The notes: generated by a model not told the origin, from the letters alone. 64,000 nucleotides of DNA from a candidate division WWE3 bacterium RIFCSPHIGHO2_01_FULL_40_23 (GCA_001772615.1 MEUZ01000001.1:189483-253482), one strand, 5' to 3'; counted from the stretch's first letter, positions 21,096-57,542 are shown. Translations and numbers: made by a program.

Positions 21096-21098
21096 AAG

Positions 21099-22839: not shown

Positions 22840-22862
22840 TGGTTGTATAATATACCAGTCAG

Positions 22863-22936
22863 GGCCTGATCGCCAAGTGGTAAGGCAGGAGTCTGCAAAA
22901 CTCTTATCGGCGGTTCGATTCCGCCTCAGGCCTCCA
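22863..22936 (+). tRNA. tRNA-Cys (GCA)
   Basis: Acceptor stem GGCCTGA/TCAGGCC, discriminator T and encoded CCA; anticodon loop CTGCAAA; T-arm GCGGTTCGATTCCGC. Confidence 0.85.
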
Positions 22937-22956
22937 GGATCTGTACAAAGTTTATT
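22915..22956 (+). repeat. Direct repeat copy 1: 22-nt 3' end of tRNA-Cys plus 20 nt downstream (att-like)
   Basis: TCGATTCCGCCTCAGGCCTCCAGGATCTGTACAAAGTTTATT, identical to 23097-23138. Confidence 0.9.
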
Positions 22957-23096
22957 GGATAGAACACAAAAGCAAAAAGTCACGATAAACGGAATCGAAC
23001 TGCCGGACTGAGGAACGAAGTGACGAGGGAGGCGGGCTCGCGGGATTTAGAAGCTGTTATGAGCAAAGCGAATTACAGATTCTTAATACACGTGAG

Positions 23097-25617: not shown

Positions 25618-26244
25618 CTACATAAAAGACTGGAGGATCATTTTGTAAAACTTCTTCTGGTTTAGGTAGTGATCAACAATAATAAATTCAATTCCCGCGT
25701 TTGTGGCAAACTGGTAATCGGTCTGGGAATCCCCGAAATAAATGCAGTCCTCTTTTTTGGACCCGCTTTTGTTAATTATCATGTCAAGGCAGAAAGGGTC
25801 GGGCTTTTCATGGCCTTCATCAGTGCAGGAAACAACATAGTTCAGGTATTGCGACAGGCCATTGTTTTCCATTATCTTGTTTAAAGATCCGTACTGCCTG
25901 TTGGTGCAGACGGATACTATCCTCCCCTCTTTATTGAGCGTTTTAATAATATCCGAAACTGCGTCAAATATTTCAATTTTATCTATGTTTTTTATGTGCA
26001 AGTCTTCGTTTTCCTTAACGAGAACGTGGGGGTTAAGCTTTAAACCGAAATGCAAAATCGCTTCATCAAACTGAAGATGCATTGCTGTTCCTCTTGATTT
26101 GAAATGAAGGTCTCTTAAGTATAGGTCCACTTCATAATGCTTGATGTCAATATATTTATCAAAGGTGTCAACAAACATCTGCTGGTTGAATTCGTATGAA
26201 TTTGTGATGGTGTCGTCAACATCAAAAATAAAATGTTTTTTCAC
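25618..26244 (-). CDS. HAD-superfamily hydrolase
   Basis: Motif I FDVDDTIT, motif II VCTN, and motif III K…YFGDSQTD. Confidence 0.8.
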   Translation of the reverse strand: MKKHFIFDVDDTITNSYEFNQQMFVDTFDKYIDIKHYEVDLYLRDLHFKSRGTAMHLQFDEAILHFGLKLNPHVLVKENEDLHIKNIDKIEIFDAVSDIIKTLNKEGRIVSVCTNRQYGSLNKIMENNGLSQYLNYVVSCTDEGHEKPDPFCLDMIINKSGSKKEDCIYFGDSQTDYQFATNAGIEFIIVDHYLNQKKFYKMILQSFM

Positions 26245-26292
26245 GGGTGTAATTATACGTCTTTTTAATAGGGTTGTCGTTTGTTATTAGTT

Positions 26293-26362
26293 TGTCATCC
26301 CGGCGAAAGCAGGGATCCTGAATCAAGTTCAGGATGACAAGGGCCCAAGCCCGGGATGACAA
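26293..26362. repeat. Structured palindromic element, copy D
   Basis: TGTCATCCCGGCGAAAGCAGGGATCCTGAATCAAGTTCAGGATGACAAGGGCCCAAGCCCGGGATGACAA. Confidence 0.7.
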
Positions 26363-26455
26363 AAGGTCCGCGACACAACGGACTAAGTCTAAACAAAAAG
26401 GAGGTGGACTGCAGTCAATACACCTCCTTAAAAATCCTTTGTCAACTTATGGGGT

Positions 26456-27742
26456 TTACCAGCTTCCAGAATCAGATCCGCCGGTATCCCAACTACCGCT
26501 ATCGCTACCGCCTCCCGTATCCCATGATCCAGAGTCACTGCCTGAGTCCCAACCGCCATCGGAATCGGAACCCCAGCTACCCGAATCCGTACCTCCGCTG
26601 TCCCAGCTCCCACCAGAGTCGGAGTCATCATCAGACGAATCAAACAATGATGTGCTTGAGGACGACGAGGGCTCCGGAGTGCTCGTCGGCTCGGGTGTAT
26701 TAGTCGGAAGTGGCGTGGGTGTAGGCGTTGCGGCAAGATCAGTAGCGTCTTCAGCTTTCTTAATCGCCGAGTCCGCATAAGCCATCGACGCAATGAAATC
26801 CTCGCCGTAGCAGGCTTGCCGTGCCTTCGCAACCTCCCCCTTGGCCTCCGCCAATTTGTTCTTGGCATTAACTTTATTATAGGAACTTGCGGCCACGTAA
26901 GTTATCGTGTCTGTAATTTCCTTGTCCGCCGAGATAATCTGGGTGTACGCAGTAACCACATTGGCACTGTCCACATCAGCGCGAATCCTAGCAGTAGCAA
27001 TGAGCTCCTCTGCCTTTTTGCCCTCATCGTACACCGCTGGCTTATCAATGATTCCCTCTACGGGAGTTTGAAAAGCGCGGAAGGCTACTGCGAGCTGAAC
27101 CTGTCCATTCTGTAGGGTAAAATAGGAGGCGCTGAATGTTTGAACCTTTCGATTCGGTTCATCGCATAGCACCTTCCTTGGAAGCTCATCAATGTATTGC
27201 CGCGTGGAGGTGATGGAATCACCAACCTTCACAAGATAACCGCTGTCAATATCCATTGCCTTGCGGTCAAGCTCAAGAAGGTAAGCTCTCGCATTACCCT
27301 CGGCGAGCTCGTTTACCACGACAGTCGGCTGCAAGGCCTCGTTCAGACTTTTTAGGTCCGCGTAAGCTCCATCCCAGTTTTTTGATTCCTGATCTTCGTC
27401 AAGGGCAAGTAGAAGATCGGAAATCCTTCCCTTCGGAGCCAATAACTCATCGGCGTTTGACAACTGCCGCGAGTAATCAGCCGTGTAGTAGGAAGGGAAC
27501 TTGGGAGGCTTGTGTGCGTCAAGAACCTGATGCGCCTCCGGAAGATTCTCCGTCAGCTCCTGAACCTGAAAGCGGATGCCATCCTCCCGCCTTTGAACAT
27601 CCATCGCCTTGGCGGGGGATAAAATTGAGGGGCCAAACATGATGGCCGCGCCGGCAAACATCATCAGGATTCCCGAAACCACCCACCGCCACCAATTCTC
27701 AAAATCAAAGTACCTATCGAGTATTTTCGACAGTTCGTCCAC
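26456..27742 (-). CDS. Membrane-anchored protein with C-terminal (D/S/G)-S-G-S-W repeat tail (hypothetical)
   Basis: TM near the N-terminus, about 300-aa helical domain, TPTPTP linker, then seven WD/WG-spaced DSGSW repeats at the C-terminus. GC-rich. Confidence 0.55.
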   Translation of the reverse strand: MDELSKILDRYFDFENWWRWVVSGILMMFAGAAIMFGPSILSPAKAMDVQRREDGIRFQVQELTENLPEAHQVLDAHKPPKFPSYYTADYSRQLSNADELLAPKGRISDLLLALDEDQESKNWDGAYADLKSLNEALQPTVVVNELAEGNARAYLLELDRKAMDIDSGYLVKVGDSITSTRQYIDELPRKVLCDEPNRKVQTFSASYFTLQNGQVQLAVAFRAFQTPVEGIIDKPAVYDEGKKAEELIATARIRADVDSANVVTAYTQIISADKEITDTITYVAASSYNKVNAKNKLAEAKGEVAKARQACYGEDFIASMAYADSAIKKAEDATDLAATPTPTPLPTNTPEPTSTPEPSSSSSTSLFDSSDDDSDSGGSWDSGGTDSGSWGSDSDGGWDSGSDSGSWDTGGGSDSGSWDTGGSDSGSW

Positions 27743-27816
27743 TTTGTCCTCTCCTTTTTACGACAGATTAATTTTTGCTTTCGCAAACCGCCGGATTTAA
27801 CAACTCACAACCACCT

Positions 27817-27887
27817 TTGTCATCCCGGGTTTGACCCGGGATCCCGTTGGAGTTGCTGTAGAGATCCCTGCATCCGCAGGGATGACA
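27817..27887. repeat. Structured palindromic element, copy E
   Basis: TGTCA + ATCCCGGGTTTGACCCGGGAT + TCCCTGCATCCGCAGGGA + TGACA. Confidence 0.75.
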
Positions 27888-27964
27888 GGGGGTCGTGTTA
27901 AACTCGCCGGTTTACACACGAGAAAGTAAAACAAAACTTCCTCGTGTGAATGGTGGGCAGACCT

Positions 27965-28846
27965 TTAGAACGGAATCCCGCACTGCGTACAGGTTGTTGC
28001 GTTCGGAGCTTTCTGAACGCCGCAAGCAGGACAACGCGTTTTTGCTTCTTCAATCTGCTCTTGAAGCTTTGCCTGCCTCTGCTGACGTGCTTCCTCACCC
28101 TGCTTTTCCCAGTAAGCATCTTCATCAGGTTTCGCGGCTTTGTCCAAAGCACCCCACACCTGAAGCTTCAGGGTGAATACACTGAATTTACTTCCGATTC
28201 CTTGGGCAAGGTTGGAGGCAGTTGAGCCCATAAGGTCTGTGAGTGTGGACAGAATGTTCGAAGCGCCGCCAAACCGCCTGGCAATACTTGCTGCAGTACC
28301 GGCAATGTCCAACGCCGCAGTTGCGGCACCCTCAAGTTTGAGATTCCCAACGGAAACCGTGGTTGTCCCGTCACGATTTTCTGTAACGGAAACCTCAAGA
28401 ACTGGGACCCATCGCCCGCCAAGAAGCTGCTGAACGGTATAAGCCCCACCCGCAAATGAGCGGGCCACACGCGTATCATCATCTTCCAAAGCCACCAAGG
28501 CACGCTCAATTACATCAGCCCGGCAGTAGTAATTGTGTGGGTCAGGGTGGTACACAATTGCCGCGCCAACTCCCGCCCCGATTCCAACCACCCCGAGGAG
28601 GGTTCCCAACTCCCCGCTGACGCCGGCTCCGGAAGAAGTGGCTGAGGGCATAGAAGCAAATCTCTGTGAAAGAACCTTAAGCTCCGTTGCTTCCGCCTGT
28701 CTCTTTGGCTGCTTTGCCAATAGACCTTTGAGGATCTTCACCAAGCCATCCTGCGAAAGTTCCGCCCAAGCGTCCTTCATAGGACCCTCTTCAATCCCAT
28801 CCCAAATTGCCTTAAGATCGGAAGGTAGGGCATTAATATCCGCCAT
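27965..28846 (-). CDS. Hypothetical protein with C-terminal zinc ribbon
   Basis: 293 aa; Gly/Ala-rich centre, coiled coil, and CPACG…CTQCG at the C-terminus. GC-rich. Confidence 0.5.
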   Translation of the reverse strand: MADINALPSDLKAIWDGIEEGPMKDAWAELSQDGLVKILKGLLAKQPKRQAEATELKVLSQRFASMPSATSSGAGVSGELGTLLGVVGIGAGVGAAIVYHPDPHNYYCRADVIERALVALEDDDTRVARSFAGGAYTVQQLLGGRWVPVLEVSVTENRDGTTTVSVGNLKLEGAATAALDIAGTAASIARRFGGASNILSTLTDLMGSTASNLAQGIGSKFSVFTLKLQVWGALDKAAKPDEDAYWEKQGEEARQQRQAKLQEQIEEAKTRCPACGVQKAPNATTCTQCGIPF

Positions 28847-28967
28847 TCTCTCATCTCCTTATCTTTTCCTTATTGGTTTTGTAAAGTGTGAGTATTATAG
28901 GTTTTATGAATGCGGGTGTCAAAAACGAACCATGTTTTAAGATTCACTAACACTTTTGCGGGTACTG

Positions 28968-29064
28968 TCTGTCATCCCGGGCTTGACCCGGGATCTTATC
29001 GCGGGATTGTCATAGAGATCCCGGATCATGTGCCCGCCTTCGGCAGGCAGGTCCGGGATGACAA
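28968..29064. repeat. Structured palindromic element, copy F (double unit)
   Basis: CTGTCATCCCGGGCTTGACCCGGGATC… plus GATCCCGGATC… plus GTCCGGGATGACAA, between divergent genes. Confidence 0.75.
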
Positions 29065-29136
29065 TTGGAATAAACCTGAATAAAGATATAAAATATCCGA
29101 TAGCAAAACTATTACAAAGAAAAGAGGAAAGAGACC

Positions 29137-29922
29137 ATGAAAAAGCTTATTGTAGCTATGGTAGCGTTTCCGTTGGTGGTACTGCTCTACGCGTGTGTAT
29201 CCCGCAACCCCCAGCTCACGGAAACACCAGCCGCAGTCGGAACCGCTACACGGGTGGCACTATCAACCGCGTCAGCGGAGGTTTCTCTGACTCCGAGTCC
29301 CGAAGTAAGTGAAGCCGTCTTTATCAAAGGCGGGGTGGCTACACTTGGCCGTACGGAAAAAGAGGTTGAGGAAGACTATCAAGACTGCCTTGCTATGGCG
29401 GGCAGGACAAATCAAGCAGCTTCAATCTGTGAACCAAAGGATAGTGTCTTTGGCGACCGGCCGCTTCGTACCATGTGGAAAGTGGAAGCTTTTCGCCTTG
29501 ATATTTATGAAGCCCACGATTCCAATGGCTACCCGCTCATCGTGCACTACGACGAAGCGGTTAAGGCCTGCCAGGAAAAAGGCGGAAGACTCCCCACCGA
29601 GGAACAGTGGGAATTTGCCGCGCGCGGCGAGGAGGGAAGAATGTGGCCATGGGGAAACAGCCCGCCCACAGCCGACAAGGCAAACATTGACACGGTTGGC
29701 GGCTACTCCGACAATCGCGTTCAAAAAGTGGGACAATACGAAGCGGGCAAAACGCCCGAAGGGGTCCACGACATGGTCGGAAACGTATGGGAATGGGTCG
29801 AAGGCGGCATGCGAAAAGGCGGGAGCGCGGGAAGCTATGTGGTTTTCACAAAGCCTTCCCATATGACCAGCGATAGCCAGGCTGGTTTCCGTTGCGCCTA
29901 TGATGCGCCCCCTAACTCATGA
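29137..29922 (+). CDS. Lipoprotein with formylglycine-generating-enzyme (FGE/SUMF1)-type domain
   Basis: Lipobox LLYAC; HDMVGNVWEWV…GGS…GFRCA signature. Confidence 0.75.
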   Translation: MKKLIVAMVAFPLVVLLYACVSRNPQLTETPAAVGTATRVALSTASAEVSLTPSPEVSEAVFIKGGVATLGRTEKEVEEDYQDCLAMAGRTNQAASICEPKDSVFGDRPLRTMWKVEAFRLDIYEAHDSNGYPLIVHYDEAVKACQEKGGRLPTEEQWEFAARGEEGRMWPWGNSPPTADKANIDTVGGYSDNRVQKVGQYEAGKTPEGVHDMVGNVWEWVEGGMRKGGSAGSYVVFTKPSHMTSDSQAGFRCAYDAPPNS

Positions 29923-29927
29923 GATTA

Positions 29928-29954
29928 GATTCCTGCTTCCGCGGGAATGACAAG
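29928..29954. repeat. Partial palindromic element, copy G (ATTCCTGCTTCCGCGGGAATGACAAG)
   Basis: Half-element immediately 3' of the FGE gene. Confidence 0.5.
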
Positions 29955-29955
29955 T

Positions 29956-29996
29956 TTTTTTTCAGAGCGGAAAGAACACAAACTTTCCGCTTTTTT
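29956..29996 (+). terminator. Rho-independent terminator
   Basis: AGCGGAAAG…CTTTCCGCT followed by TTTTTT. Confidence 0.65.
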
Positions 29997-30091
29997 ATTC
30001 AAAAACAAAACCGAATTTCAAATAAAAAACCCTCCGAACACGAGGTCACAACTTCTGTGACATCTGATTCAGAGGGTGTCAAACTTAAAGT

Positions 30092-31669
30092 CTAGGGGTC
30101 ACACTCCCCGATTGCCTTACCCCATTCACGGGTTGTCACGTCAAAGGTAGTCCTGTAATCCCCTTCAGTAGTAACGACCTCTAGCACTGTGCCGCTAAAA
30201 CCGGTAAGTTTCAACGTGCACTCCATTGTGCTTATGGGGTAACCCTTCGGAACCTCCGCTCCCTTTTCCAAAATCAAGGTAGCCTGGCCGTTAGCTGTCG
30301 CCCCTGCGAACACAACAACGGATTGGCCGTCGGTAGTATCCACACCAGTCCACCGTGTCGTTAGCCGGTAGCCTGGGTACGGTCCTCCAGTCACTTCCAT
30401 AATCCTGCCGGCCACCGAAGGAGTCAGTCCGGGGATAGTCGGCTGAACCGGTTGAGTGAGGTACTCAATTGCCTTCTCCGGCGGTAACGGCTGTGGGGCG
30501 TCGCACCCACTCAAAAGTGCAAACGTCACCAAAGAGGTCAAAACCAAATTCCTCATCATCTCACACTCCTCTACTTGCGAGCTCACACTTGGATAAGTGT
30601 AGGTTCGCGTGATATCGGTTGACCAACGAATTGTCAACTGTTCTAAGGGAGGTTTAACAATCTCATCCCTTAGCTGACGCCACCCTTCTTCCGGGCTATT
30701 GTCGGCCCCTTCGCAACCCGGCGGTTGGGGTCCTCCCGGAGGGCACCTCTGCTTTTGGGTCATAACCCCAACGAAGCGGATGGTTTCCCCATACTGCTCA
30801 CGCACAAAGTTGGCAACATCGGCCCACTGCCTAGCGTTGTATCCATTTATGTTGTAAATCTCCGGAACCGGACGGGCGTATGGGATATGCGGATTCCCTT
30901 TACCGATACGGCAGCACTTATATGCCACCTCGTCATAGTTCCATCCGTTCTCGCATACGTCACTGTCTACATTGCACACGGCGTTGCCAAAATCAAGCAA
31001 ACAACCTTTGTCGGGGTCCCCGGGAACACAGGTTGTTGCTTTAATGTACTCCTCTTCCCAACGCTCGGTGGTGTAAGGGTCGTTCCACGTGAGCTCCATA
31101 TCACTCGCACCGACGATGGTAACCTGACTGCTGTAGTTGGCCGCTCCCTGGACTATGGAATTAACCATTAAAGCCCAGGCCTTGCCATGTCCCACAGCAA
31201 GAGCCAAGTCCATTGAGGAGTTATTCACCCCAACGCCGATCGTCAATTGGGACAGCTTATCCCTTGACGAATAGATCCAGAAATTTCTGGCCATTTGTCT
31301 TACAGCTTCTCTAATGTCAGATTCCTTAAAGAAACCGTCAACAAAAATAGGCCAGGCTCCCCAGATACTGCCCGATTTTCCCGGATAACCAAGATCCAAA
31401 ACCACAAGCCAGTCCTGGGCCCTGGGCGTGTTGTACGCCGCAATGCCCAAAGCCCGGCCGACATCCGGAAGAAACCTTAAGTCATCAACATAATAGGACT
31501 TGGTCCATCCCGGATACGGGGGCAGCGGGTAATTTTTCAGGATCAGCGGCAGGTAAACCTTCCGGTGGTTTAGGGCGTCACTCTTCTCCTCCTCTGCGCT
31601 TATACCACTTACTCCGCTTGACGTTAGAAAGACCGCTAACGCAAGCAAGGCACAGAGGACGCGCTTCAT
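30092..31669 (-). CDS. Secreted protein ORF (525 aa) containing an internal second lipoprotein signal peptide (possible fusion of two genes)
   Basis: N-terminal signal peptide MKRVLCALLALAVFLTSSGVSG. At residue 371, MMRNLVLTSLVTFALLSGC (lipobox) is preceded by GAGGAG; an internal start would be at 30559. There is no stop codon between the two halves. Confidence 0.55.
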   Translation of the reverse strand: MKRVLCALLALAVFLTSSGVSGISAEEEKSDALNHRKVYLPLILKNYPLPPYPGWTKSYYVDDLRFLPDVGRALGIAAYNTPRAQDWLVVLDLGYPGKSGSIWGAWPIFVDGFFKESDIREAVRQMARNFWIYSSRDKLSQLTIGVGVNNSSMDLALAVGHGKAWALMVNSIVQGAANYSSQVTIVGASDMELTWNDPYTTERWEEEYIKATTCVPGDPDKGCLLDFGNAVCNVDSDVCENGWNYDEVAYKCCRIGKGNPHIPYARPVPEIYNINGYNARQWADVANFVREQYGETIRFVGVMTQKQRCPPGGPQPPGCEGADNSPEEGWRQLRDEIVKPPLEQLTIRWSTDITRTYTYPSVSSQVEECEMMRNLVLTSLVTFALLSGCDAPQPLPPEKAIEYLTQPVQPTIPGLTPSVAGRIMEVTGGPYPGYRLTTRWTGVDTTDGQSVVVFAGATANGQATLILEKGAEVPKGYPISTMECTLKLTGFSGTVLEVVTTEGDYRTTFDVTTREWGKAIGECDP

Positions 31670-31886
31670 TGTAGTCTCCTTAAAGGCTAAAAGTACCCGT
31701 TAAATCTCTTGCTAAAAAACCGATTGTGTATTAGGCGTCAGCCTTCCTTTCTAATTGTGAATAATTTGAAAGTTGTCTTAATTATACTTCTACACAAACC
31801 GGCCCATAAAATCAACAGTTTTTAACCTAGACCGTTATTAGCCCCCATGGTATGATTTAAAACAGTAATTGATTTAAGGAGAATTT

Positions 31887-32099
31887 ATGATGACAGAAGG
31901 TGGCCAAAACAACGAAGGTGGGGAAGGCTCGGCTTTGGCTTCTATAAACGAAGTTTTGGAGGCACTAGATCCTGAAAATAGAGAAAGTTTAAGAGGTGCA
32001 ATAGCAGAAGCATTAGCAGATGGGAAAACACCCGATGAGATAGTTAAGATACTGGAGGGGGGAGTGGAAGAAAATCCTCCCACAGCACAATCCACTTGA
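31887..32099 (+). CDS. Small acidic protein (70 aa)
   Basis: Strong RBS TAAGGAGAATTTATGATG; Glu/Gly/Ala-rich. Confidence 0.45.
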   Translation: MMTEGGQNNEGGEGSALASINEVLEALDPENRESLRGAIAEALADGKTPDEIVKILEGGVEENPPTAQST

Positions 32100-36694: not shown

Positions 36695-37093
36695 TCAGGC
36701 TTTGCTGTCTAAAACCTCATTAACTATCCTATCAGCTTCTTTATTTTCATTCCTTTGAACGTGCATAAACTCAATAAAATCAAACTTTTCGCAGAGAAGC
36801 TTTACATGGGAGAACAAATCCTTAAGATGCGTATCTTTAACTCTGTACTCCCCATTTAACTGCTTAACAACAAGCTCGCTGTCAAGCCTACATTTTACAG
36901 CCTTAATACCCAAATCCAAAACTTCAGACAAACCTCTCACAAGTGCTTTATATTCGGAAACGTTATTTGTCGCGTTCCCTATAAATTCTCCACCCTTTTT
37001 TAAAACCTTGTTCTTATCATCTGAAATAACAAAAGCCAAAGCGGCAGGCCCTGGATTTCCTCTTGCCCCGCCGTCAGTGTTTAAAAAAATCAT
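36695..37093 (-). CDS. rnhA: Ribonuclease HI
   Basis: NTDGGARGNPGPAA…NNVSEYKAL…; 132 aa. Confidence 0.88.
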   Translation of the reverse strand: MIFLNTDGGARGNPGPAALAFVISDDKNKVLKKGGEFIGNATNNVSEYKALVRGLSEVLDLGIKAVKCRLDSELVVKQLNGEYRVKDTHLKDLFSHVKLLCEKFDFIEFMHVQRNENKEADRIVNEVLDSKA

Positions 37094-37758
37094 GCCCCGC
37101 CCTTTAAATAATTTTTAAATGATAAATAAAAAACAGAAATAAAAAGGCTTAAAAAGAAACCGGCAAGTGCAAATAGGGGAGGGTTTGGCTCAAGCTTTAC
37201 CACAACGGGCTTTTTTTCTACCAGATCAATCCCAAGCCTTTCGTCAGCGCTCTTGTTTAGCTCCTCCGACTTTTTGACCGTAGTCTCTACAAGAGAATCC
37301 CACAGCTTTTCGGTAAAATCCCGATCTCTTCCCACAACGGAAACCAGAACAAGCTGTGGCCCGCTTCTTTTCACGGTTACATAGTCATCAAGCTTAACAA
37401 GATCTTTATACGCAAAAGACGGATTAACAGATTTAAGAGCGGCGCTTCTCACATCAATACTTTTTAAAAACCCGATTACGGTTTCTGTATATTTCTCCGC
37501 AGTCTGGATTGCATAAAAGCCCTCATACGTAAAGTAGCCAGGACTCCCTAGCTCGGCTTCCCTCTTTACGTACAAAGTCGCGGAAGCCTTGTATTTTACA
37601 GGTATATAAAAAGATATTATAAAAACGGCTATAGCAACAAGGAAGCTTAAAAGGAGGGAGGCCTTTAAGTGCTTTTGCAAAACGGCCAGAAAATCCTTTA
37701 ATTCCACGAATGGATTATCCGAAAATATGTTTTCCTTGTCAACAAAAGGTCTAATCAA
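37090..37758 (-). CDS. Wzz/CpsC-like polysaccharide chain-length-determinant (co-polymerase) protein
   Basis: Bitopic: N-terminal TM after LKDFLAVLQKH…, periplasmic domain, C-terminal TM with a P…G motif (PNPPLFALAGFFLSLFI). Overlaps rnhA by 4 nt. Confidence 0.6.
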   Translation of the reverse strand: MIRPFVDKENIFSDNPFVELKDFLAVLQKHLKASLLLSFLVAIAVFIISFYIPVKYKASATLYVKREAELGSPGYFTYEGFYAIQTAEKYTETVIGFLKSIDVRSAALKSVNPSFAYKDLVKLDDYVTVKRSGPQLVLVSVVGRDRDFTEKLWDSLVETTVKKSEELNKSADERLGIDLVEKKPVVVKLEPNPPLFALAGFFLSLFISVFYLSFKNYLKGGA

Positions 37759-37783
37759 ATATAATTAGTTTAGAAAACTGCCC

Positions 37784-40700
37784 ATGAAAGAAAAACAACA
37801 AACGATTATTAAAAAATCTGCTCTTGCCCCTACGGTGATTGTTTCAGGAGGCGGGGGTTTTATAGGCTCTCACCTTGTTGAAGCCCTCCTCATAAAAGAT
37901 GCGAGAGTTGTCGTTCTTGATAACTTTTCAACAGGCAAAAGATCGTATCTTTCAGGGGTAATGGAAAACCCCAAATTCACTTTAATTGAATGTGACATTA
38001 ATGACGGGATCCCAAAAGGCGTGGAGTCAGCCGATTATGTAATTCATCTTGCTGCGTCCGAAAGTTATATTTATGGAGACGAAAACATTACCCTTGATTC
38101 CCTTTTAACAAACGCGATCGGAACTAAAAACCTTCTTGATCTTTCCAAGAAGTCTTCTTCAAAGTTTCTGCTGGCGTCAACCATAGATATATATCAGGGT
38201 TTAATCTCTTCTCTTGATATAGCCCACTACTTCGGTCAGACGGAGACCGAGGAAAAAAGGTTTTCATACTCCGAAGCCAAAAGATTTGCCGAAGCTTTGG
38301 TATGGGAGTATTACAAAAAGTTTAACCTTAACTCAAGGATAGTGAGGCTTCCCGAGGTTTATGGTCCAAGGATGGACTTCTCTTCTGGAAGTGAGCTTGG
38401 AAGACTTGTTAACCTTTTATTAAACAGAGAAAACCTAGTTGTTTATGGCGATGGGCTTGAAAAAAATTATTACCTGTATATTACGGATACCGTTTCAGGC
38501 ATAATCAAAGCCTTATTTAATGAAGACTCCGAAGGGAAAATCTACACTCTTTCAGGAAGTGACTCGGTTACAACAATTGAGCTCACTTACCTTCTAAAAA
38601 ATCTTTCCCAAGGCCATACGGAAGTAGTATTTAAAAACGCTTCCGATAAAAACAAGCCAAAAGAAGTTAAAATCTCCCCGACTGACAACCTAAACTGGGT
38701 CTCAAAAGTAAGTCTGAAGGAGGGGGTGACAAAAACTTTAAGATGGTACGGGTACGATTTTGAAGGCGGCAGTTTTAAACCTCCTAAATTTGTGGCTAAA
38801 GAGGAAAGGGAAGGAATAACAACTATAAAACCGGAAACTTTTTTGGGAGCCGCGCCCGAAGCTCCAAAGGCGCCGGCGCCTCCTCCTCAAACCCCTGTAA
38901 AACCAAGCGTTACCTTTGCCCCCAAAGCAGAAGTTGAATCAGAAAAGCCTAAAAGAACCTTTGACAAAATAAAGTCAAAACCTCTCACCATTCCCCTTAT
39001 CGGTGCAGCTTTCTCAATTTTTCTTGCTCTTCTTTTGTTTGCAGTTATACCCATCCTTAAAACTTTGTATTTTGCAAACAAGGGTTACTCCCACCTTAAT
39101 GCGGCTACGGAAAATCTGGAAAAATTGTCGCTTTCCGAGGCGCAGCAAAACGGCTCCAAGGCCTTGGCAAGTTTTACAAGCGCTCATAACAGCCTAAATA
39201 ATCTCGGCTGGCTGTTTATTCTTTTAAAAGAGGATGCAAGATTTAGAAACTATTCAAAACTGTTAAAAATAGCAGAATACTCATCTTCAGCCGCAACAAA
39301 TACCTCAATCGGCGCAAAACCTCTAACCGAAATTTGGGATAATCTAAAACCGAATTCAAAATCGGGGGTGAGCGAGGCGGCCATCAGAAAATCTGTAGTA
39401 AGCTTTAAAAGTGCGAGGGAAGATCTTGAAAGGGCGGAGGGAGAGATTAAAGAATTAAATGTAAAAACTTTACCCAAAAAATATGTTTCAAAAATAAACG
39501 AGGTTTCCGAAAAAATCCCGCATGCAAAAGAGGCTCTATCAACTGTTGAAGCTGTAGCCTACACACTTCCTAAACTCCTCGGAGTAAACGGGAGTAAAAA
39601 GTATTTAATTCTTTTTGAAAACCCCAATGAATTAAGGGCTACCGGAGGCTTCATAGGCTCATACGCCGTGGTAGAAATTGAAAACGGCAAAATTAAAGAA
39701 ATCACCATTGATGACATCTACAACATAGACGGGCTTTTAGACCTTAATAATTTTAAAACCCCTTCTTATGATCCGATTAAAAAATATGCAAAGCAGGATT
39801 ATTTAAGAATTAGAGACGCAAACTGGAACCCGTCATTTCCCGAATCGGCAAATACTATTTTAAAGCTGTTTGAAGCGGCAAACGGGGTTAAGTTTAACGG
39901 AGTTGTAGCAATTGACACATACCTTACGGAAGGTCTTCTTAAAGCCACGGGACCTATCTTTCTTACGGCATATAATGAAGAGATAAAAGCGGAAAATCTA
40001 TATGAAAAAGCACAATATTACTCCGAAGCATCTTACATAGAAGGGTCCCAGCAGAAAAAAGCCTTTTTAACCGTTCTTGGAAGTAAGCTTTTAGAAACTA
40101 TCTTTTCACTCCCTGATGAGAAGATCTCCGAAGTTGCAAAAGAGATATTTTCAAACCTTGACCAAAAGCATATCCTGGTTTTTCTTCCAAACAGCGAGCT
40201 TTCCCCAATCATAGCCGAGAAAGGATGGGATGGGACAGTAAGTGCAACAAAAACCGATTATATTTTTATAGTGGACTCAAACGTTGGGGCAAATAAAGCC
40301 AATTATCTTATTGAAGAATCGGCAAAATATGAAATCAAAAATACCTATAGGGACGGCTCCCTTGAAGTAAATCTTACAATTTCATACAAACACCTTGGGA
40401 AAGATTTGACCTGGCCAGGAGGCCCCTACACGGATTATCTAAGAGTTCTTGTTCCAAAAGAGAGCTTTTTACATAAAGCTTCGCGAACGGATACGGGCAG
40501 ATCAGAAACGGATATAACAAAAGCCGTAGTTACCTCCGAGGAATCAGGGAAAAGAACATTTGAGGTCCCTTTCATATTAAACCCGCGTGAAGGAACCGAA
40601 ATTAACTTTAATTACACACTCCCTTCCTCAATCTCGGTAGGGAAAGGCGAGAAGGTCTATTCACTTTACTGGCAGAAGCAGCCAGGTACCAAAGGAATGC

Positions 40701-40837
40701 CGATTTCAATTATTTTTAACACTCCTTTTGGAAAAGAAGTCGTTGAAACCAACCCGCCATTTACAAAAGAAAGGGACACCTACAAATTTTCAACCAGCCT
40801 TGCAAAAGACCTCAAGGCCACTATAAGAACAAAATAG
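37784..40837 (+). CDS. Fusion protein: NAD-dependent sugar epimerase/dehydratase (about 330 aa) + linker + TM + about 600-aa extracytoplasmic domain
   Basis: N-terminal VSGGGGFIGSHLVEALL Rossmann motif with a YxxxK region. Pro-rich linker (APEAPKAPAPPPQTP), one TM helix, then a long domain without a recognised catalytic motif (DUF4012-like from memory, unverified). Confidence 0.7.
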   Translation: MKEKQQTIIKKSALAPTVIVSGGGGFIGSHLVEALLIKDARVVVLDNFSTGKRSYLSGVMENPKFTLIECDINDGIPKGVESADYVIHLAASESYIYGDENITLDSLLTNAIGTKNLLDLSKKSSSKFLLASTIDIYQGLISSLDIAHYFGQTETEEKRFSYSEAKRFAEALVWEYYKKFNLNSRIVRLPEVYGPRMDFSSGSELGRLVNLLLNRENLVVYGDGLEKNYYLYITDTVSGIIKALFNEDSEGKIYTLSGSDSVTTIELTYLLKNLSQGHTEVVFKNASDKNKPKEVKISPTDNLNWVSKVSLKEGVTKTLRWYGYDFEGGSFKPPKFVAKEEREGITTIKPETFLGAAPEAPKAPAPPPQTPVKPSVTFAPKAEVESEKPKRTFDKIKSKPLTIPLIGAAFSIFLALLLFAVIPILKTLYFANKGYSHLNAATENLEKLSLSEAQQNGSKALASFTSAHNSLNNLGWLFILLKEDARFRNYSKLLKIAEYSSSAATNTSIGAKPLTEIWDNLKPNSKSGVSEAAIRKSVVSFKSAREDLERAEGEIKELNVKTLPKKYVSKINEVSEKIPHAKEALSTVEAVAYTLPKLLGVNGSKKYLILFENPNELRATGGFIGSYAVVEIENGKIKEITIDDIYNIDGLLDLNNFKTPSYDPIKKYAKQDYLRIRDANWNPSFPESANTILKLFEAANGVKFNGVVAIDTYLTEGLLKATGPIFLTAYNEEIKAENLYEKAQYYSEASYIEGSQQKKAFLTVLGSKLLETIFSLPDEKISEVAKEIFSNLDQKHILVFLPNSELSPIIAEKGWDGTVSATKTDYIFIVDSNVGANKANYLIEESAKYEIKNTYRDGSLEVNLTISYKHLGKDLTWPGGPYTDYLRVLVPKESFLHKASRTDTGRSETDITKAVVTSEESGKRTFEVPFILNPREGTEINFNYTLPSSISVGKGEKVYSLYWQKQPGTKGMPISIIFNTPFGKEVVETNPPFTKERDTYKFSTSLAKDLKATIRTK

Positions 40838-47791: not shown

Positions 47792-49111
47792 TTATTTTCC
47801 AAAGGATTTTTGGGCTGTGGAGAGAGCCTCCGAAGCAGGCTCGCCGGATAAAACGGTATTAACGGCGGTTTTAAGAAGGTCAACCTCTTTATCATTTCCC
47901 GATTTGGAGGAAAGGACACCGCTTTTTGCGGTCTCTGCCGTTTTAACGTAAACATCAAGATACGCGTTTCCCGACAAATCCCCCTGCAAAGATTTCAAAC
48001 TGTAAGGCTCCCCAAAAGGCCTTGCCTTTGACTGCTCGCTGTAAAGCTTTCTTTGAACCTCCTCGGTTGATAAATACTTTAAAAACTCCCACGCGGCATC
48101 AGGACTTGAACTGTTTTTAGAAACAGCCTCCATCCAGAAACTTCCCCAATCAATAACAATGGGGTTTCCTTCAAGATCCAAAGCTCTTGGAACAGGAGCA
48201 ATTCCCATATTAATATTAGGGTTTCTGTTTAGAATATTTAAAACTTCCCATGATGGCGCAAAAACCATTGCCACTTTGTTGTCTGCAAAAGCCTCTACCG
48301 ACGGTGGCAAAACATCACTCCACACTTTCTCAACAGTCACAAAATTAGTGTAAAAGGTAAGAGCGTCCGCCGCGGCCTGGCTGTTTAAGTCGTCAGGAAC
48401 CTTTATACCTCCCTGTGAAAAAAGGAGCCCAAGAATTGAAGAAAAATGGTCTATGTTATTGGCCGAACCTATTGCTGCGCCCGCTACCTCCAGGTTTCCG
48501 GCCTTATCTTTCTTTGCAAGCCTGGAAGCCACGATCCTAAATTCCTCCCAGGTCGCAGGAGGTGAGGAAATGCCACCTTCGTTAAACATCTGTTTGTTAT
48601 ACAAAAGAGCGAGACCATCATAATGAAGGGGGACCGCGTAAACCTTGCCCTCGGAAACGGCGCTCTCTTTAGCCACGGGATAAAACATATTTTCATAATC
48701 GGTGGCTGAAAAAATACTTGAAGGGGCAGGAGAAAGGTTTCCCTGTAAGGAAGGAACCCAGGAATTATGAACGCGTATGATATCAGGCGCGGAACCTTCC
48801 GAAAGCCTTGTAAAAATAGACTCTTTATAGCTTTTCAGGCTTACAAAAGACCTCTCCTCATACATAATGTCAACATTCGGGTGCATTTTTTTGTAGTCGG
48901 CGATAACCGAGTCCATCACCTCTTTGGGCTCCCACAAACCCCACATTGTAAGACTTGCAGGCTTTCCCGTAACTCCAGGCTTTGAACCAAGGTATTTCCC
49001 AACCACAGGAATGTCCTGCAAAGAGCATGCTGTAAGAAGTACTGAAGTTAACAAAAGAAGGAACAAAACCCTTAATTTAGGTAGGGGCAAGGCTTTTTTC
49101 ATGTAAAACAA
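47792..49111 (-). CDS. ABC-transporter extracellular solute-binding lipoprotein (family 1, sugar-type)
   Basis: Lipobox LLTAC; about 420-aa periplasmic-binding-protein composition. Confidence 0.65.
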   Translation of the reverse strand: MFYMKKALPLPKLRVLFLLLLTSVLLTACSLQDIPVVGKYLGSKPGVTGKPASLTMWGLWEPKEVMDSVIADYKKMHPNVDIMYEERSFVSLKSYKESIFTRLSEGSAPDIIRVHNSWVPSLQGNLSPAPSSIFSATDYENMFYPVAKESAVSEGKVYAVPLHYDGLALLYNKQMFNEGGISSPPATWEEFRIVASRLAKKDKAGNLEVAGAAIGSANNIDHFSSILGLLFSQGGIKVPDDLNSQAAADALTFYTNFVTVEKVWSDVLPPSVEAFADNKVAMVFAPSWEVLNILNRNPNINMGIAPVPRALDLEGNPIVIDWGSFWMEAVSKNSSSPDAAWEFLKYLSTEEVQRKLYSEQSKARPFGEPYSLKSLQGDLSGNAYLDVYVKTAETAKSGVLSSKSGNDKEVDLLKTAVNTVLSGEPASEALSTAQKSFGK

Positions 49112-50351
49112 TTGTAGATAACCCCATACCCAGTGTCAACCAAGTAAGAATAAACCCTTGCTGAATAGTAAAGGGGTAATGATCAAAAGTGCCGATAAAA
49201 AACACCTCTAAAATTAAAATAAGAGGAAAAACTTCATGCCCTTTAGATAAAACCTTCATAAAAATGAGGTATAAAAACCCCGAAAAAAACACAAGAGTTA
49301 CTATTCCTGACTCCGAAGCGACTAAATAAAACACGTTATGAACAGGCTGAATAAACTTGATAATACCCCTAACCCCACCGTATTTTTCAAGATTTATGGT
49401 AAACATATTCAAGCCGACTCCTGTCAAAGGATTACCTTTAATCATCTTCACACTGGCTTTTAAAAGATCGTCTCTTCTATAAATTGAGGCTCTTTCGGAT
49501 TTAATCTCATTCATAACAACGGGGAGGAAGAGATTTAAAAAAATGATCAGGAAAAAAGCTCCTTTAAAAAGGAACTCTTTCTTAAATCTCCTTAAAAGAA
49601 CGAGCAGAGAAACTCCCAGAAAGAAAGCCAAAATAGAAGAGGTGCTTAAAGTCAAAAATAAGACCAGCAGCCCGTAAAGAAAAGCGAGAACTTGAAAAAG
49701 AGACAGCCTTTTTGATTTAAAAAAAGAATAAAGGAGTATGGATAAAGAAATCGCAAGAAACCCGCCAAGGACGTTTGGGTGGGGGAGTGTACCGTAAGGC
49801 GGTATAACAGCTCTTCCAAAAAATCCCTCATAAGAAACACCTAAGGTCCTGTAAGTGTAGGGTATTTCTCCAAAAAACAAGTAGTTACTAAACAAAGAAG
49901 CTTTTTTAACCCATTGGGCAAAACCTAAGAAGCTTTCAAAAAACAATGGAAATGAAATTACTCCAGCAAGTTTTTTAAGATCTCTTTCAATAGAAAAATT
50001 AAGTGAAACATAAAGAAAAAGGAAAATAAATTCATAAATTTTAACCAGTTTATACAAGGAAGGATAAGAAAAAACGCTGAAAGAAACGGAAACTATATAA
50101 AGAAAAAGAAAAGCAAAAAGAGGAAGAACCCCTGAAGTAAATCTGTATCTGGGCCTGTTTTTAATGATGTCAAGATCAAAAAGAATGAAAATGCCAATAA
50201 TTATCAAATCCGTTACATAAAAAGTGGGGATCAGGTAGTCAACAAGAATATTGGAAGTGTAAGACCAGTTAAAAATGAAGTGTTTCCCAAGATTAACCGG
50301 AAGGAAAAATATTAAAGAAAAAAAGAGGAATGTATGAAGCCTCTTTAGCAT
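49077..50351 (-). CDS. O-antigen ligase / Wzy-like polytopic membrane protein
   Basis: About 11 TM helices; loop region …IKGNPLTGVGLNMF… typical of the Wzy_C family. Confidence 0.55.
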   Translation of the reverse strand: MLKRLHTFLFFSLIFFLPVNLGKHFIFNWSYTSNILVDYLIPTFYVTDLIIIGIFILFDLDIIKNRPRYRFTSGVLPLFAFLFLYIVSVSFSVFSYPSLYKLVKIYEFIFLFLYVSLNFSIERDLKKLAGVISFPLFFESFLGFAQWVKKASLFSNYLFFGEIPYTYRTLGVSYEGFFGRAVIPPYGTLPHPNVLGGFLAISLSILLYSFFKSKRLSLFQVLAFLYGLLVLFLTLSTSSILAFFLGVSLLVLLRRFKKEFLFKGAFFLIIFLNLFLPVVMNEIKSERASIYRRDDLLKASVKMIKGNPLTGVGLNMFTINLEKYGGVRGIIKFIQPVHNVFYLVASESGIVTLVFFSGFLYLIFMKVLSKGHEVFPLILILEVFFIGTFDHYPFTIQQGFILTWLTLGMGLSTIVLHEKSLAPT

Positions 50352-50690
50352 AGCCTATTTGTAACATGATATAGGGCATCGTATCAAGAGAGTTTGCAAA
50401 CCCCCTTTCATTTCTACTCTTGTATTACATATTTAGAAGTTACAGATATAGGGGATGTGGTTAAGTGAATTTCGGGTAATTTAACCTTTTGTTAATACCA
50501 TACCAATAACGGTTTGTGTTTATATGCAGTACTTTATTGCCAAATTAATCTAAAAAACCCGAAGCTTGTTACTGTGATAACTTAAAAAGATGTTGAAAAA
50601 GATAAAAACCTTGTGGAAACCTTTGTGGATAAACAAGCCAACTTGTCCACAATGCATGCTTTGCCGTTTTTATGCTCTGACTAATCCACA
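50352..50690. promoter_or_regulatory. Candidate oriC: AT-rich non-coding region with a DnaA-box cluster 3' of dnaA
   Basis: TGTGGATAA perfect box at 50624-50632. One-mismatch boxes TGTGGTTAA 50456-50464, TTGTCCACA 50643-50651 and TAATCCACA 50682-50690. TGTGGAAAC at 50613-50621. Confidence 0.6.
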
Positions 50691-52054
50691 TTTATATTAA
50701 GAGTCCTTTTTATATTTACAATGTCCTGCCTTAGCCTTGTGTCGGCGTTTATTTCTTTCTCTATTTTTTCAGATCCGTGCATTATCGTTGTATGATCTCT
50801 TCCTCCGAGGAGATCACCTATTGCCATAAACGGCGTTCCCGAATATTTCTTTAAAAGAAACATGGAGACCTGCCTTGGAAGGACATACTCTTTAAGCCTT
50901 TTTGGTCCTTTTAAGTCAGTCATTTTTATGCTGTAGTAATTGCAGACTGCTTTTAGCACCTCGTTAATATTCACATTTATTTTCCCAGGTATTACCTGGC
51001 CTAAAACTTTGGCGCTGTACTCCTTTGTGACTGCTAGCCCTTCCGCTTTTGCTTGCGTTATTATCTGAAGAAAAGCCCCCTCAAGCTCTCTGATATTCGT
51101 CTCTACAATCTGGGCAATATAATCAACTACATCGTTCTCTACCTCTGCCCGCATCTGATTTCTTTTCTCTCTTAAAATTGCGCTTCTTGTTTCCACATCC
51201 GGTTTTTGCATGTCAGCCACTACCCCACTTGAAAATCTTGATGTTATCCTTACATCAAGCCTTGAAAGCTCTTTCGGCGGCCTATCCGACGTGAGAACTA
51301 TCTGTTTTTGCGCCATGTATAAAGCGTTAAAGGTGTGAAAGAACTCCTCCTGCGTTGCCTCCCCTCTTCCCGCTATAAACTGTATGTCATCAATTAGAAG
51401 CACATCGGCTTTTCTGAATTTGTTTCTAAATTTATTTGCAATGTAGTTTTTATTCCGCCCCTCCTGAATAGCCTCAATAAGTTCGTTCATAAAAGATTCG
51501 GCGGTTGCATAAACTACTTTTGTTTTAGGAGCGCTTTTTAAAATATGATTTCCGATGGCTTGGATCAGATGCGTTTTCCCAAGGCCGACGCCTGCATGGA
51601 GGAAGAACGGGTTATAGACCTTTCCCGGATTTTCGGTTATAGCTGTTGCTATTGCGTGGGCGAGCCTGTTGCTTGGGCCTACTATGAATGTTTCAAATGT
51701 ATATTTTTGAGAAAGATTATTGTATTCATCCAGATTTTCTCTGGAAGCGCTTTCTTTGATTTTTGCAGGTACAAACAAAGGGAGGTCGTCCGTTTTAGTC
51801 TCCACTTTCTGTTCGTCAACTTTAAAGATGATTTGGTAGTTTCCGTTTCCTATTCTATCCAGGGTGTTTTTTAGAAGACCATAAAACTTTTTGTTTAAAT
51901 AATCTTTTACATGGTTGCTCGGACAAACTATTTCAAAGGTGCTTTCACTGCAGTCACCAACCTTTGTAGGATAAAAGTATGCCTTATAAATTAATTCGGT
52001 CAGCACTGTTTGGAGCTCACCCAGTGCCGCTTTGTAAAGATCGGAAGGATTCAT
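50681..52054 (-). CDS. dnaA: Chromosomal replication initiator DnaA
   Basis: Walker A GVGLGKTHL, LLIDDIQF, and the C-terminal DNA-binding domain …DLLGGRDHTTIMHG…. Confidence 0.95.
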   Translation of the reverse strand: MNPSDLYKAALGELQTVLTELIYKAYFYPTKVGDCSESTFEIVCPSNHVKDYLNKKFYGLLKNTLDRIGNGNYQIIFKVDEQKVETKTDDLPLFVPAKIKESASRENLDEYNNLSQKYTFETFIVGPSNRLAHAIATAITENPGKVYNPFFLHAGVGLGKTHLIQAIGNHILKSAPKTKVVYATAESFMNELIEAIQEGRNKNYIANKFRNKFRKADVLLIDDIQFIAGRGEATQEEFFHTFNALYMAQKQIVLTSDRPPKELSRLDVRITSRFSSGVVADMQKPDVETRSAILREKRNQMRAEVENDVVDYIAQIVETNIRELEGAFLQIITQAKAEGLAVTKEYSAKVLGQVIPGKINVNINEVLKAVCNYYSIKMTDLKGPKRLKEYVLPRQVSMFLLKKYSGTPFMAIGDLLGGRDHTTIMHGSEKIEKEINADTRLRQDIVNIKRTLNINVD

Positions 52055-52096
52055 AAAGGTTGTATTTTTGGCAGGAACACCTCTACTTTATAAAGT

Positions 52097-52105
52097 TATC
52101 CACAA
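52097..52105. promoter_or_regulatory. Perfect DnaA box (TTATCCACA) in the dnaA / rpmH divergent promoter region
   Basis: Exact consensus 9-mer 50 nt upstream of the dnaA start. Confidence 0.55.
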
Positions 52106-52163
52106 TTTTGTCAATGACTTTTAAATTGACTAACCCTCCCTTCTTGTATAGTATTCTTAGGTT

Positions 52164-52316
52164 ATGCCAAAGAGAACATACCAGCCGAAAAAGAGAAAAA
52201 GGGCAAAAAAGCACGGCTTTATGAAAAGGATGTCAGGGCCCGGCGGAAGAAACGTTTTGAAAAGGAGAAGAGCTAAAGGCAGAGCCGCCCTTACCGTTTC
52301 AAAACACTCAAAATAA
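52164..52316 (+). CDS. rpmH: 50S ribosomal protein L34
   Basis: [50 protein letters not shown]; not in the ORF track (under 60 aa). Confidence 0.93.
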
Positions 52317-52708
52317 TGCTACCAAAAAACTTAAGGATTACCGATAAGTTTGACTTTAATAAAGTAAAGCGCTTTGGAAAAGTAATCCATAGCCCGCTTT
52401 TTATTCTCTCTTATCTTATTGACGGTAAAAACGAAAAGTACCCTTCAAGATTTGGGGTTATTATTACTAATAAGATAGAAAAAAGATCAGTAAAGAGGCA
52501 CAGGGCGAAACGGATACTGATCGATCTTATTTATAAAAATCTTGACAGGTTTCCTGGAAAAGGTATGTATGTTTTTATTGGCAAGCCTTTTATAACGGAA
52601 AAAAACTATGAAGAAATATCTTTTGAATTTAATCAGGTTTTATCAAAAATACCTGTCTTTGGATCAGGGGATGCTTCGCGACCTTCTTTTTCCAAATTCA
52701 AGCATTAG
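52316..52708 (+). CDS. rnpA: RNase P protein component
   Basis: Starts in the TAATG overlap with rpmH; basic 130-aa protein with …[10 protein letters not shown]…. Confidence 0.85.
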
Positions 52709-52853
52709 GATTTGTAGGTTTTACCCCTCCTGTTCGGAGTATACGTACCAGGCAGTTGAAAAATATGGTATTTTAACGGGTGGTCTTAAGGGCCTTTTAA
52801 GGGTGTTAAGATGCAACCCCCTTTCAAAGGGTGGGGAGGATCCTCTTCTATGA
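52608..52853 (+). CDS. yidD: Membrane protein insertion efficiency factor YidD
   Basis: [19 protein letters not shown]…RCNP signature. Overlaps the rnpA 3' end in another frame. Confidence 0.8.
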
Positions 52854-54114: not shown

Positions 54115-54122
54115 TTATTAAT

Positions 54123-57540: not shown

Positions 57541-57542
57541 CT

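Follow-up and report, generated by a model that had tools for sequence, protein, structure and literature searches.

The gene analysed here encodes a membrane-anchored fusion protein and lies on a 64,000-nucleotide stretch of DNA (hereafter the window) from candidate division WWE3 bacterium RIFCSPHIGHO2_01_FULL_40_23 (GCA_001772615.1 MEUZ01000001.1:189483-253482). The range 37090-40837, singled out by an initial annotation made from the sequence alone, comprises two divergent genes, namely the fusion gene (37784-40837, plus strand) and an open reading frame (ORF) at 37090-37758 on the minus strand that encodes a Wzz-like protein. The fusion ORF starts at an ATG and runs for 1017 codons with no interruption, and an identical protein is deposited as OGC50931.1 (UniRef A0A1F4VF82), from a WWE3 metagenome-assembled genome (MAG), under the annotations 'hypothetical protein' and 'NAD-dependent epimerase/dehydratase domain-containing protein'. 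From the inside to the outside of the cell, in the predicted topology, the protein consists of a UXS-derived Rossmann domain of the short-chain dehydrogenase/reductase (SDR) type, a flexible Pro-rich linker, one transmembrane (TM) helix, a long helical stalk, and a two-part globular head that includes DUF4012 (Table 1). The fusion is best read as a so far uncharacterised component of Wzx/Wzy-type surface-glycan assembly that acts outside the membrane.

Table 1. Features of the window, numbered from its first nucleotide (res, residues of the encoded protein).
Feature	Coordinates	Strand	Evidence or detail
Whole fusion gene, SDR-linker-TM-stalk-DUF4012, 1017 aa	37784..40837	+	ORF list, translation, 14-contig identity, database match
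Extended-SDR domain, UXS-like (res 17-330), cytoplasmic (predicted)	37832..38773	+	PF01370, PF16363, UXS1 alignment
Pro/Ala/Lys/Glu-rich cytoplasmic linker (res 331-400)	38774..38983	+	Composition, low conservation, variable length
Single TM helix (res 401-426), predicted N-in	38984..39061	+	Kyte-Doolittle scan, charge bias
Helical stalk (res 428-598), predicted extracytoplasmic, helices up to 37 residues	39065..39577	+	AlphaFold2 model m391fbec7579f, DSSP H2-19 to H138-171
DUF4012 alpha/beta module (res 599-817)	39578..40234	+	Pfam, AlphaFold2 model mc229333bb235, cross-phylum conservation
C-terminal beta-rich domain (res 818-1017)	40235..40834	+	DSSP of both models, Foldseek
CpsC/Wzz-like co-polymerase-like protein, 205 aa (OGC50930.1)	37090..37707	-	Pfam Wzz, TIGR01006, TM scan, 67 orthologues
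Divergent intergenic region, 76 bp (25 bp with the TTG start)	37708..37783	.	Coordinates
UppS	11094-11825	-	
GT2-like protein, 518 aa	14512-16068		
GT4-family phosphosugar transferase, 515 aa	16022-17569		
UbiA	18005-18976		
Wzy_C protein	19611-21095		
TPR protein	21099-21716		
PEGA+SH3_3 protein	21706-22983	-	
Replication-origin neighbourhood	50681-55250		dnaA (-), yidC 52811-53647, dnaN 54123-55250
Type-IV-secretion-like trio: PrgI-like with CarboxypepD_reg, TraC-like, VirB4/TraG P-loop ATPase	55477-59914	-	

The fusion of SDR and DUF4012 is real and old, not an artefact. Fourteen contigs, from assemblies of ENA, JGI and Logan, carry the identical fusion protein, and both Pfam domains were present in all 120 homologues listed (39-57% identity, about 1000-1220 aa). 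Related loci were taken as the best 80 from a pattern scan with one genome per GTDB species, and ORF and hidden Markov model analysis placed SDR and DUF4012 in one ORF of 950-1130 aa at about 75 of these, including the complete genome CP006914.1 (L024) and a curated complete MAG (L060). At two of the 80 loci the gene is in two ORFs, with the break within the SDR part (L066) or at about residue 800 (L072), and these splits are either MAG frameshift errors or pseudogenes. Good assemblies are thus free of the stop codon or frameshift between the halves that the initial annotation had named as a sign of an artefactual fusion.

The phyletic distribution of the fusion, also raised there, is mainly WWE3 (Katanobacteria), in which it is a conserved single-copy gene near oriC, and it extends to the Microgenomates, in which the SDR part is more divergent. 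The replication-origin neighbourhood lies nearby in the window and rnpA, rpmH, yidC and dnaN lie near the gene in two relatives (L006, L008), so the fusion is an origin-proximal core gene. Relatives of the head were found in at least 561 species by the pattern scan, and a 50%-identity representative library held 11,170 at E<=1e-3 and 3,679 at E<=1e-30. Among the best 150 entries of this library, the SDR part was detectable in 117 of 143 new representatives, and several of the remainder have N-termini resembling decayed Rossmann motifs. Stand-alone DUF4012 proteins of 661 and 676 aa occur at two Chloroflexota loci (L082 and L087, respectively) and have a TM helix right at the N-terminus and no cytoplasmic domain. 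Many WWE3-like MAGs among loci L009-L088, recognised by fusion protein and synteny, carry titles such as 'uncultured Candidatus Saccharibacteria bacterium', and three Microgenomates-like loci bear the title 'Gammaproteobacteria'; the taxonomy given in the records of these MAGs, which were submitted in bulk, looks unreliable.

The N-terminal domain matches Epimerase (PF01370; residues 18-254, E 5.7e-34, 118 bits against a cut-off of 20.9) and GDP_Man_Dehyd (PF16363; residues 20-317), and carries GGGGFIGSHL at residues 22-31, the first seven residues of which (22-28) form the NAD motif. The closest solved relative is human UXS1 (4gll/2b69; E 5e-41, aligned over residues 18-327), whose Thr, Glu, Tyr and Lys align with T133, D135, Y162 and K166, respectively; the domain also has D46. 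The residues that we take to be UXS-specific in catalysis are a Glu (TSE motif) and an Arg (QTRAF motif); the former position is D135 (Asp in 104 of the 120 homologues) and the latter is N228. The Arg column holds Glu in 87 orthologues, Asn in 9, Gln in 7 and Asp in 5, and never Arg. The catalytic-Tyr column holds, in the 120 close homologues, Leu in 93, His in 9, Met in 6 and Gln in 4, with Ile, Ala, Val or Asn in the rest, and Tyr only in the window protein and one other (P0003); in the closest clade it is mostly His. Across a wider set of 237 fusion proteins, Tyr is found in eight (the window protein among them) and Leu, His, Met, Gln or Phe in the other 229, and GxGxxG, Tyr and Lys are combined in three. 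The Gly-rich NAD motif is invariant in the 120 homologues and is lost too in more distant fusion relatives. No NCBIfam equivalog cut-off was approached (best TIGR01181, 114.8 bits against 365). A bona fide UXS was considered and rejected: the Arg is never kept, the Glu is Asp, the Tyr is mostly lost, and the domain falls below all NCBIfam enzyme cut-offs.

Selection on this domain is nonetheless strong, though apparently not for canonical acid/base catalysis. Mean pairwise identity is highest in the SDR domain (0.58), followed by the DUF4012 module (0.56), the linker (0.34) and the stalk (0.29), and GGxGFxG, D46, S132, K166, R167, E170 and GPxM are invariant among orthologues. Canonical redox chemistry is therefore unlikely as the conserved role, and the usual enzyme chemistry has probably been lost in most relatives. 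From the loss of Tyr and Arg together with the retained conservation we infer an NAD-binding pseudo-enzyme or scaffold rather than a tethered enzyme. Helix alphaF, the usual dimer interface of SDRs, is almost invariant in orthologues, which makes a dimerising or scaffolding role plausible. The initial annotation had described a complete, normally cytosolic enzyme tethered to the membrane; this part of the description is weakened. The window protein has the T133/Y162/K166 triad and may be active, but in the family Tyr is rarely and the UXS Arg never kept, and more distant members lack the Gly motif.

The linker consists of Pro, Ala, Lys and Glu to 60% and varies from 50 to 133 residues among orthologues. 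It leads to the sole hydrophobic segment of the protein (residues 401-426, Kyte-Doolittle 2.6), and the hydrophobicity scan gave no N-terminal signal-like segment; exactly one TM segment was found in 114 of 120 homologues. Because seven Lys or Arg residues fall within the 20 residues before the helix and two after it, the N-terminal SDR domain is predicted to be inside and the 591-aa C-terminal part outside. The domain order, Pro/Ala-rich linker and single TM helix are as first annotated (Pfam, Kyte-Doolittle scan), and the charge bias points to the same N-in topology.

The earlier guess that the outside part is DUF4012-like was correct: residues 602-741 match PF13196 (E 5.9e-27, 95.4 bits against a cut-off of 28), as did all of 12 diverse heads tested. 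The Pfam model covers only the first 140 or so residues of the alpha/beta module. Structures were predicted with AlphaFold2 from a 121-sequence alignment, giving confident models of residues 428-1017 (m391fbec7579f; pLDDT 92.4, pTM 0.89) and of the core, residues 598-1017 (mc229333bb235; pLDDT 91.5, pTM 0.90). Alignment of 371 heads (WWE3, mixed representatives and Chloroflexi) revealed conservation of at least 85% in every set at 32 positions, 18 of them polar or aromatic. Nine of these lie in the alpha/beta module (N613, E616, R618, D644, Y646, D649, R677, N680 and N738), where GGF621-623 is likewise conserved, and nine in the beta-rich domain (D825, N833, K838, Y882, Y885, R887, Y959, K965 and Q966). 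This constellation suits a catalytic or ligand-binding site spanning both subdomains, as judged from sequence conservation. The earlier statement that the outside domain has no recognisable catalytic motif thus holds for known motifs and overlooks a strongly conserved set of polar residues.

Foldseek searches of the PDB with the 590- and 420-residue models returned the same partial matches, 4g2a and ERAP1/ERAP2/IRAP (E 1e-7 to 1e-6, about 210-236 columns, TMq 0.19-0.27, root-mean-square deviation 6-7 A, 10-11% identity). The first of these, 4g2a, is a DUF4424 protein with a 19-stranded beta-sandwich similar to the N-terminal domain found in LTA4 hydrolase and in M1 peptidases (PMC3848476). Since 4g2a is a beta-sandwich, the matches, whose aligned ranges are absent from the output, are assigned to the beta-rich half, and the modelled domain probably resembles the beta-sandwich of DUF4424 and of the M1-aminopeptidase N-domain. 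The alpha/beta module had no PDB structure match with either model. A PDB profile search with 12 heads found no sequence, a single-sequence PDB search with the outside domain gave non-significant matches only (E >= 0.42), Pfam at E up to 10 with the 12 diverse heads gave DUF4012 and noise only, NCBIfam has no model for the head, and BFVD gave uncharacterised giant-virus proteins only. LCP-type ligases were absent from the listed top 50 Foldseek matches, and no LCP sequence was compared.

A periplasmic solute- or sugar-binding protein, which would have made the outside part an ordinary one, was also considered and rejected. Pfam returned no solute-binding protein (SBP) family at E<=10, the top Foldseek matches were the DUF4424/M1 beta-sandwiches, and the sole SBP match in the PDB sequence search, YclQ, was non-significant (E 0.42). 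The depositor label of 4g2a, 'putative nutrient binding protein', does not mean an SBP fold.

The gene divergent from the fusion is the Wzz/CpsC-type neighbour that the initial annotation had named. A mechanical ORF starts at TTG 37758 (222 aa), whereas orthologues and GenBank place the start at GTG 37707, 17 codons later. The protein matches Wzz (PF02706) at 30.3 bits against a cut-off of 25.5 (E 5e-7), and aligns nearly end to end with the CpsC family model TIGR01006 (protein residues 17-214, positions 8-196 of 226), with a score of 39.7 bits that is below the cut-off of 296 (E 3.5e-10). It has two TM segments (residues 16-36 and 177-197) enclosing an outside loop of about 140 aa. Directly before the second is EPNPP, and a Pro is conserved there in orthologues; the canonical PX2PX4SPK motif is incomplete. 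An alignment of 67 orthologues of this small, fast-evolving protein, collected by jackhmmer on related loci, shows a 'P.KY.A' motif after the first TM segment, typical of co-polymerases. A partner kinase of the bacterial tyrosine kinase (BY-kinase) type (CpsD/Wze) was sought among the 39 window ORFs scanned, and no AAA_31, CbiA or ParA-type kinase was found.

At most WWE3 loci among the 80 the Wzz-like homologue is immediately upstream of the fusion and usually divergent, and at six more distant loci (L075, L076, L077, L079, L081 and L086) it is co-directional and 0-47 bp away. A link that persists when the orientation changes carries more weight than synteny by itself. Microgenomates/Daviesbacteria loci have, on the same strand, the order Wzy_C, Polysacc_synt (Wzx), RNase H and fusion, and some WWE3 loci have a pair of Wzy_C and solute-binding-protein genes directly upstream of the fusion. 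In Chloroflexi, a stand-alone DUF4012 gene is beside genes for a GT2 enzyme, an LPG_synthase_TM protein and a glycoside hydrolase; another row reads Wzy_C ... Wzz-kinase, sortase, DUF4012, GT2; and another DUF4012 gene adjoins that of a TMEM260-like glycosyltransferase, 6 kb from a gene for a Bac_transf priming enzyme. The DUF4012 gene of Bifidobacterium longum 105-A, BL105A_0406, is flanked by the priming transferase gene cpsD and by wzz (PMC5412050). In four lineages, DUF4012 genes adjoin genes for Wzz, Wzy, Wzx or a priming transferase, and their linkage to Wzz, Wzy and Wzx genes is recurrent. Meheust et al. list DUF4012 among envelope-linked families common to the candidate phyla radiation (CPR) and Gram-positive-type bacteria (PMC6744442). 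The suggestion in the initial annotation of an uncharacterised surface-polysaccharide assembly component is supported by the Wzz-like gene being adjacent in two orientations and by the company of DUF4012 elsewhere, which includes Wzy, Wzx, Wzz and priming transferases (PMC5412050).

Several neighbouring features were recorded in their own right. The RNase H gene (RVT_3; window 36695-37093, minus strand) shares 4 nt with the end of the Wzz-like gene and is found beside the Wzz-like/fusion pair in 65 of 80 related loci, the Microgenomates locus L085 included, with no obvious functional reason; in Microgenomates it is the gene between Wzx and the fusion. At 11094-22983 the window holds a loose set of lipid-carrier glycan genes (UppS to PEGA+SH3_3 in Table 1), several of which recur near the fusion in relatives. 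Two Wzy_C proteins are encoded in the window, the second by a gene pair at 47792-50351 (minus strand), in which the reading frame of Wzy_C (424 aa) extends into the start of one for a MalE-like solute-binding protein (439 aa). Coupling of an O-antigen-ligase-like protein to an SBP is an odd pairing. The Wzy_C of this pair is on the same strand as the fusion and upstream of it in 14 related species, and at three loci (L010, L011 and L035) only a GreA-sized ORF separates the pair from the fusion (Pfam GreA in L010 and L011).

The explanation that accounts best for the whole, to which we give a probability of about 0.5, is that the head acts outside the membrane on a surface glycopolymer together with the CpsC-like partner, while the SDR part is a non-redox NAD-binding module. 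The head would be the working part, with a binding or catalytic site formed from the roughly 18 polar and aromatic residues conserved across phyla, and its target would be the surface glycopolymer in lipid-linked or nascent form. The stalk would keep the head away from the bilayer, and the head may cooperate with the adjacent CpsC-like co-polymerase and with Wzy_C- and Wzx-type proteins. On the cytoplasmic side, the SDR domain would bind NAD and perhaps a UDP-sugar, would dimerise or scaffold the protein, and may also report the state of cofactor or precursor. It could occupy the place held by the CpsD tyrosine kinase beside CpsC in Gram-positive systems, and a substitution of the SDR-like domain for the kinase is speculative.

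Some points count against this explanation. The window protein has the full T133/Y162/K166 triad and could be active, and some atypical SDRs function without the Tyr. Neither fold nor sequence matches point to a particular chemistry for the head, and the literature yielded no experiment on any DUF4012 protein and no mention of PF13196. WWE3 genomes are highly syntenic, with RNase H, GroEL and L25 also conserved neighbours of the fusion, so adjacency within WWE3 alone is weak evidence.

These points bear on the alternatives to different degrees. If the SDR half is a working enzyme, the protein would be a membrane-tethered nucleotide-sugar epimerase, dehydratase or decarboxylase that channels its product into the assembly machinery of the outside domain. 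The match of the NAD motif and triad to the UXS1 catalytic residues, the strong Pfam scores and the strong purifying selection on the domain all favour this, as does the His at the Tyr position in the closest clade, which could in principle serve as acid or base. A function dependent on Tyr would nevertheless have retained it, and Leu in 93 of 120 homologues, the replaced Arg and Glu, the Gly motif missing from more distant fusion relatives and scores far under every NCBIfam enzyme cut-off together make a tethered enzyme unlikely. The opposite emphasis, in which the outside part is a non-enzymatic receptor, binding module or spacer and the protein a transmembrane sensor with an SDR-like output, would agree with the lack of a known catalytic motif or fold, with the likeness to the non-catalytic beta-sandwiches of M1 peptidases and DUF4424, and with a cytoplasmic domain that looks like a dead enzyme. 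Conserved Glu, Asp, Arg and Lys among 18 residues in both subdomains fit an active site better than a spacer, however, and stand-alone DUF4012 proteins have no cytoplasmic output domain, that of L082 beginning with its TM helix; we regard a sensor as quite unlikely. A bolder form of the glycan-assembly explanation is also quite unlikely: a transmembrane coupling device of a new kind in which a dead UXS-like SDR binds NAD(H), a UDP-sugar or both in the cytoplasm and, through dimerisation and the TM helix and stalk, gates an extracellular DUF4012 glycan-processing enzyme of undescribed alpha/beta fold, replacing CpsD as cytoplasmic partner of a CpsC-like co-polymerase in the reduced genomes of CPR.

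Association with secretion rather than with polysaccharide was considered from the gene order. A PrgI-like gene is directly downstream of the fusion on the same strand in 37-38 of the 80 species loci (median gap 22 bp; L006 and L008 among them), and TraC-like and VirB4-like genes are next downstream in 32, so that the fusion might be an envelope accessory of an apparatus resembling a type IV secretion system, active for example in remodelling or spanning the wall. In the window, however, the trio is about 15 kb from the fusion, on the other strand and beyond dnaA and dnaN; ribosomal L25 is the downstream neighbour in 30 loci, the stand-alone DUF4012 genes of Chloroflexi and Bifidobacterium are in polysaccharide loci without such genes, and synteny in WWE3 is high in general. 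A secretion accessory is very unlikely on this evidence. An error of assembly or gene calling that joined two separate genes, to which the two split loci could point, is practically out of the question given the uninterrupted ORF in the window, the identical protein on 14 independently assembled contigs, and the single ORF in about 75 of 80 species, complete and curated genomes included.

Two further regions of the window stood out. Beside the type-IV-secretion-like genes, an 867-aa protein is encoded at 61314-63917 (plus strand). Apart from a C-terminal M23 peptidase domain (residues 771-820) nothing in it is recognisable, and it may be the cell-wall hydrolase of the type-IV-secretion-like system. 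At 26001-32000 the G+C content is 0.50-0.52 vs about 0.41 elsewhere, and this stretch may be foreign DNA; it encodes an FGE-sulfatase-domain protein (29137-29922), two ORFs with no Pfam match (26456-27742 and 30092-31669) and one with a weak zinc-ribbon match (27965-28846).

DUF4012 is a very large, functionally uncharacterised family that occurs in CPR, Chloroflexi and Actinobacteria, including the exopolysaccharide loci of probiotic bifidobacteria. The family and the domain combination were already in databases, unnamed or misleadingly named and with no member studied. The WWE3 fusion brings to it the CpsC-like gene as a defined partner, a confident structural model that comes with a few candidate active-site residues, and a cytoplasmic domain that resembles a sugar-nucleotide enzyme turned pseudo-enzyme. 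Its unusual traits are this pseudo-UXS domain, an alpha/beta module of which no relative has been solved, and its status as a core gene in a CPR phylum. Should the head prove to be an enzyme in monoderm-type Wzx/Wzy pathways, it would close a gap in the account of how these bacteria finish or attach surface polysaccharides and would give concrete insight into the almost unknown CPR cell envelope. The database names 'NAD-dependent epimerase/dehydratase family protein' and 'UDP-glucuronate decarboxylase' probably overstate what the proteins can catalyse, a point of importance when metabolism is reconstructed from CPR genomes.

Among known systems, the fusion shares with UXS (human UXS1, 4gll/2b69) the GxxGxxG NAD motif, the Asp after beta2, the Ser/Thr and the Lys, and the GPRM loop is conserved. 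It differs from UXS in that orthologues have no conserved Tyr, the Arg is replaced by Glu, Asn or Gln and the Glu by Asp, the SDR is joined to a membrane anchor and an outside domain, and no enzyme-level cut-off is reached. NmrA and HSCARG/NMRAL1 are atypical, non-catalytic SDRs that keep the Rossmann fold and dinucleotide binding with the catalytic Tyr replaced. They are soluble NmrA-like regulators, whereas the fusion SDR is extended, UXS-like and membrane-attached, with predicted NAD binding. In Foldseek the head best matches the large beta-sandwiches of DUF4424 (lpg2210, 4g2a) and of the N-terminal domain of M1 peptidases and LTA4 hydrolase; the likeness is low (TMq 0.26, 10-11% identity), covers at most half of the head and carries no functional transfer. 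In Gram-positive, Wzy-dependent capsule synthesis CpsC is paired with CpsD, the former a class 2b polysaccharide co-polymerase (PCP-2b) and the latter a BY-kinase. The neighbour resembles CpsC in size, in its two TM segments, in the Wzz N-terminal motif and in a Pro-rich segment before the second TM, and it too is paired with a protein bearing a nucleotide-binding domain in the cytoplasm; here, however, this domain is of the Rossmann/SDR type, part of a bitopic protein of its own, and not a P-loop tyrosine kinase. The stand-alone DUF4012 proteins (about 660 aa in Chloroflexi; BL105A_0406 in B. longum) have the same layout of TM helix, helical region, DUF4012 and beta-rich domain and the same conserved residues, and are located in polysaccharide loci with Wzz, Wzy and glycosyltransferases. 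They are without a cytoplasmic domain, and the SDR-like addition is a feature of WWE3/Microgenomates-type sequences.

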